Positions 25,928-30,147 of a DNA stretch of 36,403 nucleotides are shown in pieces. Origin of the DNA: a virus (lineage: Duplodnaviria; Heunggongvirae; Uroviricota; Caudoviricetes); IMG/VR virus record IMGVR_UViG_2675903318_000021; one strand, given 5' to 3'. The notes beneath the pieces were generated by a model. That model searched no databases. It was not told where the DNA came from and saw only the letters and a list, made by a program, of their open reading frames with translations. The translations under genes and the position numbers were made by a program. Numbering within the stretch: position 1 is the stretch's first letter; each line of letters opens with the position of its first letter.

Positions 25928-26239
25928 TTATTCAGGAAATAACGCCCGGATATTTCCGGCCATCTGACTGGTTATCTGTGCGGTTGATACTGGCTGTGAT
26001 GCGGGGCGTTCTGTCCTGGTTTGTGTCACTGATAACGCTTCATCATCAGCCCATGCAGCCAGTCGGTAAGCCTCTGCCGGATTCATTTTCAGAAGTGCCA
26101 GCCCGGCCAGAAAAGCCACACGTTGGCCGCTTTTGCGGGCTTCTGGTGTAAGGCTGTCCAGCCAGGCGCATGCTTCGCCTTCGTTCTTGACGGCGGCGGG
26201 CTTCAGATAGAAACTTATCCGTCTGGTTGGTGTCGTCAT
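25928..26239 (-). CDS. parR: ParR/StbB-like partition adaptor (ribbon-helix-helix centromere-binding protein)
   Basis: About 104 aa from Met MTTPTRRISFYLKP; GGAG RBS; immediately downstream of the parM-like gene; similar to plasmid R1 ParR from memory (GLAL motif, N-terminal beta-strand). Confidence 0.6.
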   Translation of the reverse strand: MTTPTRRISFYLKPAAVKNEGEACAWLDSLTPEARKSGQRVAFLAGLALLKMNPAEAYRLAAWADDEALSVTQTRTERPASQPVSTAQITSQMAGNIRALFPE

Positions 26240-26243
26240 TGGT

Positions 26244-27203
26244 TTACTCCTTGTCCATTGCGTACAGCCCATTAACCAGAGCAAACTGTGGCACCCCGTC
26301 CGCGATGAAAGTCGCATTAACTCCGCAGGCTTCGCGGATAGCGGGTGCCACAATCTCCGCCCCGCCACCGACAACCATCACCCGTCCGTAACCCGAAAAA
26401 CCCGCCAGCGCGCGGATCACGCGTTGTTTCAGTGTTTCTTCCTTTTCACGAATAACCGCCATCAGGCTGGCGTAATGCGCGTCATTGTGGATGTGTTGGC
26501 GCAACCAGGCTTCATCATGGCGATGTTCGATAATGGTATTGGCGATGTGGTGACTGGTACGCATACCGTTAGTGGCCATCACCGACAGTACGGCATCGGC
26601 CATCAGGGAAACGCCTACGTGTGGATCGCAAAACACCTGGCTGATACCTGCCAGTTGTCCCTGGACCTTTGCCACATCCAGCGTGGTTCCGCCTAAATCC
26701 ACAATCAGCAGGGATTCAAACGGACTCATGTCAGCCAGTGCCTTAAAGCCAGCCGGAATGGATTCAGGCATAACCCGCACGTTACGGATAGTGAATGCTT
26801 CGCCGTTCTGGTACTCCACCGGGCGCATAACGTTCGCTTTTTTGCGGTTGATGTTGGCCATGTCCGGCTGTGCGTTTGTGTCGAAATACTCGCTCAGTGG
26901 CAGGGTGACAACCACATCCACCTCCTGTGGTGTGATGCCTGATTTGACCAGCGCGTGGTGAATGGCGATTACATTCACATCGCTGTACTGGTATTGCGTG
27001 TCGGTCGTCTGGACAAAGCGATCGCTGACCGGATCAAAACCATAGCGCACGCCATCAAGCATGTAGTTCGCAGGCTGCGAGCCACCGAACGGCGCAGACC
27101 ATTCCGACTTGAAGCTGTTCGGGCTGATGGCGTTGCGGCGTTCGCTGTTCTCAGTCCATGCCAGCTTGATGTTGGTGGAGCCGTCGTCGATACAAATTTT
27201 CAT
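26244..27203 (-). CDS. parM: ParM/StbA-like actin-family partition ATPase
   Basis: 319-aa ORF with hallmark motifs IDDGSTNIKL, ISPNSF, YSDVNV, MPESIPAG, DLGGTTLD, GGGAE, LVNG that I recognise from plasmid R1 ParM. Confidence 0.8.
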   Translation of the reverse strand: MKICIDDGSTNIKLAWTENSERRNAISPNSFKSEWSAPFGGSQPANYMLDGVRYGFDPVSDRFVQTTDTQYQYSDVNVIAIHHALVKSGITPQEVDVVVTLPLSEYFDTNAQPDMANINRKKANVMRPVEYQNGEAFTIRNVRVMPESIPAGFKALADMSPFESLLIVDLGGTTLDVAKVQGQLAGISQVFCDPHVGVSLMADAVLSVMATNGMRTSHHIANTIIEHRHDEAWLRQHIHNDAHYASLMAVIREKEETLKQRVIRALAGFSGYGRVMVVGGGAEIVAPAIREACGVNATFIADGVPQFALVNGLYAMDKE

Positions 27204-27232
27204 GTCGCTTTTCCTTATGTTGATTAATTAAT

Positions 27233-27346
27233 CGTTTACGGGATTCTGAAATCCCGTTTTTGCCTGTTTTGTGTGCGCTTCATATATCGCGGCGCGTTTT
27301 TTGCTCATTTACGGGATTTGTGAATCCCGTTTCTGTCTGTTTTTTG
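27233..27346. promoter_or_regulatory. parC-like region: two ~43-bp direct repeats, each containing the palindrome ACGGGATT-N4-AATCCCGT, upstream of parM
   Basis: Repeat 1 at 27233-27275 and repeat 2 at 27304-27346 (about 85 percent identical), palindromes 73 bp apart; repeat 2 overlaps the last codons of gene A. Confidence 0.5.
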
Positions 27347-30147
27347 TTTCCACTGGTCAGGCCACCCCGCAGCAGGTCTGCTTTGCGGCGGGCACGTTCA
27401 GTGGTTTCACTGATTCTCTGTGCGTGCTCTGCGTCGCGGATGGCGCGCAGCATGTCAGAAAGCACGGTAACGGGTGTTTTCATGGTGTTCTGGTCCTGCT
27501 GAAGTGTGGATGCCAGGCGTGTGGCGGCTTCAGGGTCTGATGCCCCCAGCTGTGCCAGATAGCTGGCGACCGGGTTATGGCGGATCTCCGTGCTGCTTAC
27601 ACCGTGATTACGGCTCAGGCGCTGCCAGAGCTGCGTGATTCGGCTGTCCGGGCGGGTATCCGGTTTGCGTACAATTTCAAATCCCTGCGGTGCAATGATG
27701 CTGCCGTCAACGTACAGACTGCCGCCCCGTAACAGGTGCTGCATTTGTTGTTCACCGATATGCAGGCCGAGAGATTCAGCAGACTCCCGCCATTCTCTAG
27801 CGAGTAATTCGTGGTTATCAGGCAAAGGCCGCTGCTGTTTGCGGCTCTGTGTCCAGCTCTGCATTTCATCACTGCTGTTTTTTGCCTGTTTGTCACGAAG
27901 CGAACGCATCAGCGCCCGGCGTTCGTGCCGTTTCAGTGAGCGCACCCATTCATCCACATCAACGCCGTCAGGAAGCTGCGGCCACGGTGCTGGCCGTTCT
28001 TCCGGCTGTTCTGTCCCGTTGTTGTCCGTTTCCTGTACACGGGGACAGTTATTGCCACGAGTCCAAGGGGCGGCAGGGCCGCCCTGAAGGTCAAAACCAT
28101 TTTCGCGGGCGCTGTCTTCCGCTTCCGGTTTACGTCTTACCAGCTTCCAGTTATCCGGATGCGTGCACACACGGGAGGATTCCCCGATGAGCGGCGACCA
28201 GATCCCGTAAATCTGTACACTCTGTTCGCCGTAATCGTTCAGCTCATCTGCGAGGTCGTAGGCGGTGCGAATCAGGTAGTCTTTGCGTGGAACAAGTACG
28301 CCGCCCTGTTTCTCTATGTAGGTGGCAAAACATCCGGCATCAGCGGCAGCGAGTACCGCATCCATTGCGTCATCCTTCAGCCGTTGCGGGCCTTCCGGGT
28401 TGCGTGCCATCTGGCTGGCAAGGCGGCGGAGTTCACGCCACACCTGACGGGAGGGGATACCAAAGAACTGGAACTGGCGGACACGGTGAAGGCGCGCCCA
28501 GCCGATGGCGCGTTCCACGCTCTCGGCCATTGATTTTCCGGTTTCGTGGTCAACGCGTGGCTTGCCCGTTTTCGGGTCGATGCCATCCACGGCGCGGCTG
28601 TCTAGGTTCTTTCCGATGTAGGTGGCGATGTAGCTGGTTGGCGTACCTTTTGAGCCGTCGACGTACTCCGCCTTAAAGCGTGGGGTAATATCATCACCCA
28701 GCTCGTGACGATCTTCCTGAATGGCAATATCGCGGGTGTGGGACACAATGGTGTCGATTTCTTCCGGATGAGCAAAGACCATCATATGCCAGTGCACGGT
28801 GCCGTCATGGTGAGGCTCCACCGTGCGGATGCCATACCAGCGCAGGCCGTCGCGGTTCAGTTTCTTGCGGACCGCCGCAAAAAACGTGTTAACCAGGTAA
28901 TCGCTGGAGTCGCGCATGGTGGCTCCGTTCCATTTGGGATTCGGATGACCGTTCTCTGTTGTGGCGTGGTATTTTGACGGGCAGGTGACAGTCAGAAACA
29001 CCGCTTTGTCGCCACGGGCTTCGGCCAGAAGTTCCAGCCCCTTCATGGTGGCCATCATTTCTGCCTTACGGTGAACCGGGTTACTTACTCCCGCGTAATA
29101 CACTGTTTCGAGATCAATCGTGAACCCGTCTTCGTTTTCCAGCATAAAACTTTTCAGGAAATCGCGTGTTTTCTCGCGCTGTGCGCGAAACTCGCTTAAC
29201 GCGTCCTGGCTCAGATAGGGTGATGTTTTTCTGGAAACCAGACAGGCGGCGCGGAGTTGTTCTTCTCTCCACTCGCAACGTAACAGCCACAGTTTGCGTT
29301 TCCACCATTCCGCACAGGTCAGGCGAAGGATTGCGCCCGGCAGCAGCTCCGTGTCCGGTTCGTTCCTCCGGTCTTTGTCTGTTGTCAGTGCGTCATAATG
29401 TGGAGGCATGGCGTGCAGGTGTAACGCCATGCGGGCCAGCATCTGATACGCCTTCAGCGTTACATCCATGGTCAGTTCGCCATCAGTCGCGCCAAAGCCA
29501 TCGCAGAGTTTTTCGAAGGTGCTGCTGAACATCGCCGCCGTCATGGTGGCCAGCGTCTGTATCTGGTGTTTGTTGAGCTGCGGCAGGTAAAGCAAATCGT
29601 CCAGGCGTTCGCGTCCGGCAAGGGAGCGATAACCCGGTGTCAGCCAGCGGCTGTCGGTGCGGTCCAGACGTTCGAATATTTTGCGCAGGGTTCCGCGTGC
29701 ATAGCGTTCCGCCTGCCAGCTCTTTTTGCCTTTCTGACGATCGGCTTCCTGCTTCTTGCGCAGGAAAGAGAGGTGGCGGCTCAGAGGTTCTCGCAGATAA
29801 ACGGGAAGCGCCTTCAGTGTGGCAAAGGCACGGGCCACCGGGTCTTGTTCTGTTGCCCGGCGCTTACTGATGATGCTCTGTGCCAGCTTTTCACGCTGTC
29901 CGGCTTCCTCAAGGGATGCCATGAGTTTTTTACCCATGGCGGATTGTGCGAAAAAGGCTTCCTCCTTCGCTTCCTGTTCTTCCCGGGCCTTTTTGTCCGC
30001 CTCAAGGTAGTAACGGATGGCGCGTTGCAGGTCGGTTTCAGTTTCCTGCCTGTGCTCCGTAAATCTGGCCGGATCAATGGCTGGCCGTGGTTCATTCCAG
30101 CTCCATGCAAACTCACTCATGGCTGGTATCCTGTCACGCGCTGCCAC
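27280..30147 (-). CDS. A: replication initiation endonuclease gpA-like (HUH rolling-circle initiator)
   Basis: About 950-aa ORF with HUH-type motif VHWHMMVF and Tyr-rich YIATYIGK segment; more likely start is the Met at 30120, which overlaps the upstream gene stop (ATGA). Confidence 0.85.
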   Translation of the reverse strand: MAARDRIPAMSEFAWSWNEPRPAIDPARFTEHRQETETDLQRAIRYYLEADKKAREEQEAKEEAFFAQSAMGKKLMASLEEAGQREKLAQSIISKRRATEQDPVARAFATLKALPVYLREPLSRHLSFLRKKQEADRQKGKKSWQAERYARGTLRKIFERLDRTDSRWLTPGYRSLAGRERLDDLLYLPQLNKHQIQTLATMTAAMFSSTFEKLCDGFGATDGELTMDVTLKAYQMLARMALHLHAMPPHYDALTTDKDRRNEPDTELLPGAILRLTCAEWWKRKLWLLRCEWREEQLRAACLVSRKTSPYLSQDALSEFRAQREKTRDFLKSFMLENEDGFTIDLETVYYAGVSNPVHRKAEMMATMKGLELLAEARGDKAVFLTVTCPSKYHATTENGHPNPKWNGATMRDSSDYLVNTFFAAVRKKLNRDGLRWYGIRTVEPHHDGTVHWHMMVFAHPEEIDTIVSHTRDIAIQEDRHELGDDITPRFKAEYVDGSKGTPTSYIATYIGKNLDSRAVDGIDPKTGKPRVDHETGKSMAESVERAIGWARLHRVRQFQFFGIPSRQVWRELRRLASQMARNPEGPQRLKDDAMDAVLAAADAGCFATYIEKQGGVLVPRKDYLIRTAYDLADELNDYGEQSVQIYGIWSPLIGESSRVCTHPDNWKLVRRKPEAEDSARENGFDLQGGPAAPWTRGNNCPRVQETDNNGTEQPEERPAPWPQLPDGVDVDEWVRSLKRHERRALMRSLRDKQAKNSSDEMQSWTQSRKQQRPLPDNHELLAREWRESAESLGLHIGEQQMQHLLRGGSLYVDGSIIAPQGFEIVRKPDTRPDSRITQLWQRLSRNHGVSSTEIRHNPVASYLAQLGASDPEAATRLASTLQQDQNTMKTPVTVLSDMLRAIRDAEHAQRISETTERARRKADLLRGGLTSGNKKQTETGFTNPVNEQKTRRDI

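Follow-up and report, generated by a model that had tools for sequence, protein, structure and literature searches.

The stretch of DNA analyzed here (IMG/VR record IMGVR_UViG_2675903318_000021; 36,403 nt, referred to below as the window) contains a P88-like prophage of the P2 family that is integrated beside leuZ in E. coli, and the subject of this analysis is its actin-type partition cassette, in which, along the minus strand, gene A is followed by a 76-bp spacer, parM, and then parR. Gene A (27280–30147) codes for the rolling-circle replication endonuclease (Phage_GPA, 1.9e-131), lies directly upstream of parM, and holds in its 3' end the distal one of two parC-like sites. Next along the strand, parM (26244–27203) encodes an actin-fold ATPase of 319 aa, and parR (25928–26239) encodes a candidate centromere-binding adaptor of 103 aa. 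The true start of parR is an ATG located 4 nt past the parM stop codon, and the TTG of the 148-aa open reading frame (ORF) in the ORF list is not used. With respect to base composition, the guanine-cytosine content of parM and parR is 55%, as against 44% for the variable cargo (24331–25927) that lies between the portal/cos side and parR, outside the partition cassette.

As an earlier note on this DNA had proposed, the two adjoining genes encode a ParM (StbA) ATPase and a ParR-like adaptor. Foremost, ParM gave Pfam matches to StbA_N (7.9e-82) and to the ParM C-terminal domain (1.3e-68), as well as a match to the R1 ParM structure (PDB ID: 1mwk) with an E-value of 2e-92 that covers residues 2–316 of the 319-aa protein. 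Sequence identity to R1 ParM is about 50%, and in the alignment of the two proteins the phosphate-1, phosphate-2, catalytic Glu, and adenosine motifs are all intact, with the segments IDDGSTNIKL, MPESIPAG, DLGGTTLD, and GGGAE being identical. The ATPase residues, on whose presence the note had made its reading depend, are thus in place as nucleotide-binding motifs identical to those of R1 ParM. For ParR, the Pfam family Plasmid_stab_B (StbB/ParR family) matches residues 6–76 at 1.6e-24, and a sequence search returned no PDB match. Both proteins carry the label 'partition protein' in PHROGs, with ParM assigned to PHROG 691 and ParR to PHROG 2515.

In the alignments, ParR is made up of a conserved N-terminal part (residues 1–66), a variable linker, and a conserved C-terminal motif, NI(R/Q)x(L/F)FP(E/K). 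Several ParR alleles are found, which have residues 1–66 and the C-terminal motif in common and differ in the linker, and the predicted DNA-binding N-terminal part holds a conserved strand region, RRISFYLKP. Such a pattern would be expected if an N-terminal domain that binds DNA were tethered through a flexible linker to a C-terminal helix that binds ParM. The AlphaFold model of the ParR monomer is of low confidence (predicted local distance difference test, pLDDT, of 57) and has helices at residues 20–29, 32–52, and, at the C-terminal end, 86–100, with residues 1–17 disordered, which is compatible with a ribbon-helix-helix fold that forms only in the dimer. Taken together, the matches and alignments identify a genuine and intact R1-family pair, with repeated palindromic sites upstream.

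That P2-like phages carry the cassette is already known, and the novelty implied by the earlier note does not hold in this respect. Its genes are named as ParM or partition protein in GenBank, RefSeq (P88-like phage records), and PHROGs, and according to Rousset et al. (bioRxiv 10.1101/2021.01.21.427644), a probable plasmid partitioning system is present in over a quarter of P2-like phages; in the phiSM paper, the protein is given only as a putative fitness factor. What is added here is that the cassette is a clade-defining backbone module under strong purifying selection, that its candidate centromere is a conserved and minimal pair of palindromes unlike iteron arrays, and that plasmid lysogeny is not its usual state.

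Paired palindromes across the end of gene A

Two direct repeats of 43 nt each (27232–27274 and 27305–27347), which are 81% identical and lie 73 bp apart from start to start, straddle the gene A stop codon (27280–27282). Each repeat contains a perfect 8+4+8 palindrome, ACGGGATT-N4-AATCCCGT. The proximal site (27238–27257; ACGGGATT-CTGA-AATCCCGT) is in the 76-bp intergenic region between A and parM, and the distal site (27311–27330; ACGGGATT-TGTG-AATCCCGT) is within the last codons of A, the whole distal repeat being inside the final 23 codons of this gene. A search of the entire window with the 20-nt pattern, allowing up to three mismatches, found the two perfect sites and one match with three mismatches, where shuffled sequences lead one to expect 0.14; the half-site had no further occurrence near the cassette and no other enrichment. 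Here, the description in the earlier note of two repeats of about 43 bp with perfect palindromes, 73 bp apart and with one of them overlapping the end of A, is borne out in its coordinates.

Both sites are fixed in position in 78 IMG/VR loci and 10 other relatives, with nearly invariant GGGA...TCCC cores and with the variation in both concentrated in the central four bases. The IMG/VR scan, which used a clade profile, kept 80 loci that are all of the E. coli type (at least 98% identical) and inform on site variation and hotspot turnover, not on new lineages. A scan of genome contigs with one ParM sequence gave three near-identical loci only, and the diverged relatives were obtained through a protein search and contig look-ups. 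When compared with Salmonella, the A–parM intergenic region has differences at 6 of its 76 positions, with a synonymous divergence (dS) of 0.19 for parM, and this region with the proximal site varies less than do the synonymous sites of the flanking genes.

More conspicuously, a layout of two YGGG-N10-CCCR sites placed 72–73 bp apart is common to the E. coli, Hafnia, and Plesiomonas lineages, the ParM of the latter two being only 62% identical. The sites are CGGG-N10-CCCG and CGGG-N10-CCCA (72 bp apart) in Plesiomonas, and TGGG-N10-CCCA and CGGG-N10-CCCA (73 bp apart) in Hafnia. The distal site is found inside gene A in E. coli and Plesiomonas and inside an extra 167-aa ORF in Hafnia, and despite this differing upstream coding context, the layout and its distance to ATTAATCAA and the ribosome-binding site are kept. 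The conserved ATTAATCAA element (27220–27228, minus strand) follows the proximal site at a distance of 10–13 nt and comes shortly before the Shine-Dalgarno AAGGA (27212–27216). It occurs as an identical 9-mer at the same relative position in all three lineages and could be a -10-like or leader element.

In a sublineage of Serratia and Enterobacter phages, inverted GGGAAC...ATAGAAAAAT arms are found in place of the GGG/CCC sites, and the ATAGAAAAAT word is the iteron of the IncL/M plasmid pEL60. Here, the type of site co-varies with the N-terminal strand of ParR: the strand TRR(I/V)SFYL pairs with GGG-N12-CCC sites, and the strand NRK(I/C)SFY, present in the Serratia and Enterobacter phages and in plasmid pEL60, pairs with ATAGAAAAAT sites. 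Because of this co-variation, which supports ParR as the reader of the sites, we take ParR as the protein that would bind the palindromes. In terms of number, the candidate centromere has four half-sites, placed upstream of parM in the canonical position of parC, and does not form an iteron array of the kind seen in plasmid relatives, one of which has nine TCTC iterons with 11-bp spacing in three clusters. Since these plasmid relatives carry classical 11-bp iteron arrays, the candidate phage centromeres may be seen as reduced versions. As a separate observation, a 17-nt A-rich stretch that enters the proximal palindrome (27258–27274, which reads AACAGGCAAAAACGGGA on the minus strand) is identical in the upstream region of a Serratia phage (L008 5871–5887), even though ParM is only 58% identical between the E. 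coli and Serratia phages, and Enterobacter has a similar GGGCAAAAAATGGGAAC.

As for transcription, the likely promoter that the earlier note had placed between the repeats was not recovered: a sigma-70 promoter scan returned no site at threshold anywhere in 24300–27700, and inspection by eye gave only weak candidates, such as TTCAGA-N16-ATTAAT with 8/12 matches. Likewise, the scan found nothing terminator-like between A and parM on the coding strand. With no promoter and no A–parM terminator on this strand, co-transcription with the early replication operon is the simplest reading, and from the common strand, the 76-bp gap, and the lack of a terminator we infer that gene A, parM, and parR are probably co-transcribed. 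Read-through from A is in this regard the alternative to a promoter of the cassette's own that is embedded in parC. Read on the plus strand, the two palindromes resemble terminators in the scan, being hairpins with T-runs behind them, and in E. coli each hairpin has a folding energy of -10.2 kcal/mol (z about -3). However, the orthologous sites in Plesiomonas and Hafnia have a z of about 0, and on the coding strand no U-run comes after the hairpins; the palindromes were therefore rejected as terminators. As the stability of the RNA hairpin is not conserved across the lineages, a site for a protein on the DNA is the more plausible reading.

Conservation, neighboring cargo, and integration state

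Identity among the ParM homologs falls in steps, from at least 92% in the E. coli type to 62% in Plesiomonas and Hafnia, 58% in Serratia, and 54% in Enterobacter. In every diverged P2-like prophage looked up, parM and parR come just after a Phage_GPA gene and before the portal and terminase genes, and the synteny of A, parM, and parR extends down to 54% ParM identity (Hafnia, Plesiomonas, Serratia, and Enterobacter). The next ParM homologs, with 48–50% identity, are on an integrative and conjugative element (ICE) and an integrated plasmid. In a neighbor-joining tree of 106 ParM sequences, drawn without support values, all those whose P2-like context was checked make up one clade, apart from the ParM proteins of plasmids and ICEs. 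Moreover, when 65 IMG/VR loci were sorted into clusters at 90% identity, parM gave 1 cluster and the 3' part of gene A essentially 1 (64 of the 65 loci), parR gave 8, and the 1 kb beyond parR gave 31; from the latter two counts, a hypervariable cos-proximal hotspot starts at or within the 3' half of parR.

Pairwise ratios of nonsynonymous to synonymous divergence (dN/dS; Nei-Gojobori, within the E. coli/Salmonella type) were 0.03–0.13 for parM, 0.08–0.44 for parR, and 0.14–0.31 for the 3' 900 nt of gene A. Judged by these ratios, parM is under strong purifying selection and is constrained more strongly than the compared 3' part of the adjacent replication gene, and values of 0.03–0.13 exclude neutral decay. 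The cassette is a fixed and clade-defining part of the replication/early region in P88-like (Xuanwuvirus) and related P2-family phages, and it is very probably a functional module of the ParMRC family that is kept in the phage by selection.

On this point, our results depart from the earlier note, which had placed the cassette in the cos-to-A cargo slot, had offered among its readings a captured plasmid-derived module and an exaptation together with the adjacent Zn-finger and membrane genes, and had proposed a phylogeny of ParM with plasmid homologs and a survey of P2-like prophages as checks. In the tree, the phage-context ParM proteins are one separate clade and show no recent plasmid capture, and in the survey the cassette retains its place right behind gene A in diverged genera, even where ParM is only 54% identical, with 1 parM cluster as against 31 in the hotspot, and is hence not cargo. 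Joint function with the neighbors fares no better, as these change from phage to phage. They are a membrane-protein gene (24861–25391, plus strand) and the Zn-finger ORF, which is an Ead/Ea22-like fragment (25529–25864, minus strand), both of them variable cargo; the latter adjoins parR, and in a genome with a 100% identical cassette the neighboring Ead/Ea22-like gene is annotated as a frameshifted pseudogene. In the diverged prophages, the slot just after parR is occupied by a KAP NTPase in Enterobacter (L011 6411–7757) and by HicA/HicB in Serratia (L008 7450–8084), which are typical defence or addiction cargo and fit a P2 hotspot that starts after parR. We also noticed, as one of the three loci from the contig scan, a 226-kb contig labelled Vagococcus sp. 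WN89Y (NZ_JBQPOM010000071.1; Firmicutes) with a P88-like cassette of the E. coli type, the ParM of which shares 97% identity with that of the window; this is very probably assembly contamination by enterobacterial DNA.

With regard to the state of the element, the window begins with pgsA and then has tRNA-Gly, tRNA-Cys, and tRNA-Leu (glyW-cysT-leuZ) at 701–1003, after which there follow a complete P2-type virion, lysis, and early gene set and, at the far end, the integrase. In E. coli 2011C-4251, where the cassette is 100% identical, the prophage is between leuZ and yecA, in keeping with the integrated, tRNA-adjacent P2-like prophage of the earlier note. The nearest named phages are P88, P884B11, phiSM, Chuche, and PhiR44_2 (genus Xuanwuvirus, family Peduoviridae). 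Integrase, Cox, and repressor are all retained by the phage, the sole replication protein found is the rolling-circle endonuclease A, and no plasmid-type initiator is present in the annotation.

Among 5426 complete E. coli genomes, 1307 (~24%) contain the 1.4-kb cassette, in 1453 chromosomal places as against 2 on plasmids (>99% chromosomal). PLSDB gave few full-length matches, all but one 34-kb circle being on records that range in size from 228 kb to 1.4 Mb, and the single large record inspected, a 272-kb Salmonella 'plasmid', has pheA-tyrA-aroF beside the prophage, which are chromosomal genes. The remaining circle (NZ_CP148288.1) is a 34,461-bp 'plasmid' record that consists of a complete P88-like genome, and over the 24.9 kb searched it shows 100% identity to a prophage that another strain of that study carries in integrated form. 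By far the prevailing state of the element is thus the integrated one, and what speaks for a plasmid state is anecdotal. It does not fit the definition of a phage-plasmid, which would lysogenize as an autonomous replicon with a plasmid-type initiator and no need to integrate, and plasmid-state lysogeny is not the usual context of the cassette.

Several other features of the prophage deserve mention. At 2015–2155 (minus strand) there is a 46-aa Hok/Gef-type toxin ORF, and upstream of it, at 2145–2300 (minus strand), an Rfam match to the sok antitoxin (47 bits, E 1.6e-9) that is under the gathering score of 59. This hok/sok-like locus is common to P88, Chuche, P884B11, phiSM, and many Stx phages, and one and the same prophage thus has homologs of the two stability loci that are classical for R1, parMRC and hok/sok. 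In the early region upstream of gene A, Rfam matches to the C4 antisense RNA (30866–30953, minus strand; 78.5 bits) and to isrK (30989–31063, minus strand; 62.8 bits) represent a P1/P7 immI-like, antisense-controlled (antirepressor-type) module in a P2-family phage. Within the cargo slot on the tail-fiber side, an Rfam match to the small RNA IS009 (10310–10508, minus strand; 189 bits) overlaps the 3' part of a serine O-acetyltransferase gene (10273–10851, minus strand). Lastly, NZ_CP027388.1, a genome whose cassette is 100% identical, departs from the window towards the leuZ-side end of the prophage (1655700–1659900, compared with 1004–3900 of the window): an IS3-family insertion is present there, and a gpD-like gene is truncated, the window having an intact 413-aa ORF (2648–3889). 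The window thus stems from a genome or version that is related to this one and not identical with it.

Proposed role and rival explanations

As to what the cassette does, we lean towards a role in segregating or positioning the circular phage genome while it is extrachromosomal. Once the early lytic operon is switched on, after infection or induction, A, parM, and parR would be transcribed together. Dimers of ParR would bind both YGGG-N10-CCCR palindromes, which are 73 bp, or about seven helical turns, apart across the end of A, so that every circular phage genome would bear a small partition complex. ATP-bound ParM filaments would capture these partition complexes and push the genome copies apart. 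Because expression with gene A would follow infection or induction, the action would be limited to the extrachromosomal phase, with the module active only while the phage is an extrachromosomal circle and inactive on the integrated prophage. The payoff may be that both daughter cells receive copies, either before integration or once the phage has excised, and/or that the monomeric circles made by A-driven rolling-circle replication are spaced out.

This proposed role is backed by two experimentally studied analogs that follow a like logic. The srpMRC locus, which is of the type II actin-type, stabilizes the SXT/R391 ICE in its excised form and is switched on only together with the functions for excision (PMC4489591). 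In the AlpAC system of the Corynebacterium glutamicum prophage CGP3, which is induced early, the adaptor binds repeats upstream of its own operon, and without the system the phage DNA does not reach its full copy number (PMC4446434). With these precedents and the 1453:2 chromosomal bias, a role in the episomal phase, one of the possibilities raised in the earlier note, is the best-supported reading. More tentatively, the whole may be viewed as a phage cytoskeleton, in which an R1-type ParM spindle and a minimal two-palindrome centromere are used by a large integrative clade of the P2 family in its extrachromosomal phase, and which is neither a plasmid-maintenance device nor a relic.

Some points weigh against this picture. 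Four half-sites are few beside the nine TCTC iterons of the plasmid relative or the ten 11-bp iterons of R1 parC, which are arranged in two clusters of five around the promoter. Neither a promoter nor a terminator was identified in the scan, and the timing of expression is one that we infer. Truncated parM variants occur in some genomes (P0006, P0009, and P0017), as is expected in decaying prophages. Phages P2 and 186, which are without the cassette, complete the same life cycle, and the cassette is hence not essential to this lifestyle. Moreover, the searchable literature held no experiment on the cassette and no functional study of ParM in P88-like or P2-like phages.

Maintenance as a plasmid-prophage, for which the phage would spend many generations as a low-copy plasmid instead of integrating, was proposed in passing by Rousset et al. 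(bioRxiv 10.1101/2021.01.21.427644) and could appeal to the complete P88-like genome in the circular record NZ_CP148288.1, to the hok/sok-like killer locus that is also on the phage, and to KS14, a P2-like phage that is a proven plasmid prophage (PMC3091744). We nevertheless regard it as unlikely, given the 1453 chromosomal places against 2 on plasmids, the size of the records (228 kb to 1.4 Mb) that hold the other PLSDB matches, with chromosomal pheA and tyrA in the one inspected, and the retention of integrase, Cox, and repressor. In addition, only endonuclease A was found as a replication protein, in contrast to RepB along with ParA in KS14, and the lone circular record could be an excised replicating form caught by long-read assembly. 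A role in the lytic cycle only, where filaments would move or anchor replicating circles in the manner of AlpAC or of a replication factory, thereby making replication or packaging more efficient, and would have no part in inheritance, seems rather unlikely as well. The place directly after gene A suggests expression with replication, deletion of AlpAC halves the CGP3 copy number, and separated monomeric circles, these being the packaging substrate of the P2 family, could aid packaging. Still, about 50% identity to R1 ParM with all motifs kept makes segregation the default activity, R1-type ParM being a bipolar pushing spindle that needs paired centromeres. The lytic-only role also overlaps with segregation or positioning in the extrachromosomal phase, and the two are not separated by sequence alone.

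That the palindromes are not a centromere, and instead are intrinsic terminators against antisense transcription into A or the sites of some other phage protein, with ParR binding elsewhere, is very unlikely. The terminator-like hairpins with T-runs on the plus strand, at -10.2 kcal/mol each, speak for such a function, yet the Plesiomonas and Hafnia sites keep their outer GGG/CCC triplets, spacing, and position and fold no better than shuffled sequences, and the coding-strand hairpins lack a U-run. Furthermore, the site type tracks the N-terminal strand of ParR, and a place upstream of parM is the canonical one for parC. We give scarcely any credence to a host benefit or the exclusion of competitors, be it anti-phage defence or incompatibility with related phages and plasmids, or to a functionless, decaying relic, even if the cassette adjoins the known P2 defence hotspot and truncated copies exist. 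PADLOC returned no matches for ParM, ParR, and the two neighboring ORFs, for which reason the reading as a defence system was rejected, and the cassette shows neither the known family nor the presence/absence turnover of variable anti-phage defence cargo, as it stays constant (1 cluster) while the adjoining hotspot turns over (31 clusters). A relic is at odds with the parM dN/dS of 0.03–0.13, and cross-incompatibility is not expected with the closest plasmid ParR proteins, which have other site types.

About 24% of complete E. coli genomes hold the cassette in an integrated prophage, where partition has no obvious job, and an understanding of its role would reveal how temperate phages cope with the interval, from infection to integration or from excision to lysis, in which they are extrachromosomal and vulnerable. 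A segregating or positioning role in this interval would extend the precedents of the ICE srpMRC and the CGP3 AlpAC to a common and tractable enterobacterial phage (P88, phiSM), and the two-palindrome site could define a minimal type II centromere that is useful for plasmid engineering. If the phage-cytoskeleton view is true, actin-driven DNA segregation would be routine in a phage of about a quarter of E. coli genomes, and four ParR half-sites would suffice for a working centromere.

Comparison with known systems

The closest likeness is to the ParMRC system (parA/stb) of plasmids R1 and NR1, with which the prophage cassette shares a ParM that aligns from end to end, a ParR that is likewise of the Plasmid_stab_B family, and the order of sites, parM, and parR. 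In contrast, the prophage cassette is in an integrating P2-family phage, directly after a rolling-circle replication gene, and its ParR is shorter (103 aa) with a trimmed linker. In place of the iteron clusters around a promoter in R1 parC, the prophage has two 18–20-bp palindromes that are 73 bp apart, one of them in a coding region, and a parC-embedded promoter of the R1 type did not emerge from the sigma-70 scan of 24300–27700.

In its circumstances, the cassette resembles the srpMRC locus, which also belongs to a normally integrated element, has a centromere of only four short direct and inverted repeats, and acts on a transient circle (PMC4489591). However, SrpM is distant from R1 ParM and SrpR is without a recognizable ParR domain (PMC4489591), and the ICE is no phage and replicates from oriT by a relaxase. 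The function of srpMRC is experimental, whereas the prophage cassette is known from sequence. A further comparison can be made with AlpC, AlpA, and alpS of CGP3 (PMC4446434, PMC5539076), where an actin-like filament former and its adaptor are again encoded by an integrated prophage and are concerned with circular phage DNA. This likeness is one of function and architecture only, as the prophage ParM clearly belongs to the R1 ParM family and the AlpAC system has another actin-like lineage and adaptor, in a Gram-positive host and a large cryptic prophage. The phenotype reported for AlpAC, moreover, concerns not partition but the copy number of the phage DNA, which drops twofold.

Finally, the phage-plasmids D6, P1/P7, N15, and Burkholderia KS14 (ParA and RepB) are, like the present phage, tailed temperate phages with plasmid-type partition genes. 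Among these, D6 has the nearest phage ParM outside Xuanwuvirus, an StbA-type protein that is 47.5% identical, and KS14 demonstrates that plasmid lysogeny is possible for a phage with a P2-type virion module (PMC3091744). While the partition genes of these phages go together with plasmid lysogeny and plasmid initiators, the prophage described here has an integrase and is chromosomal in >99% of its places.

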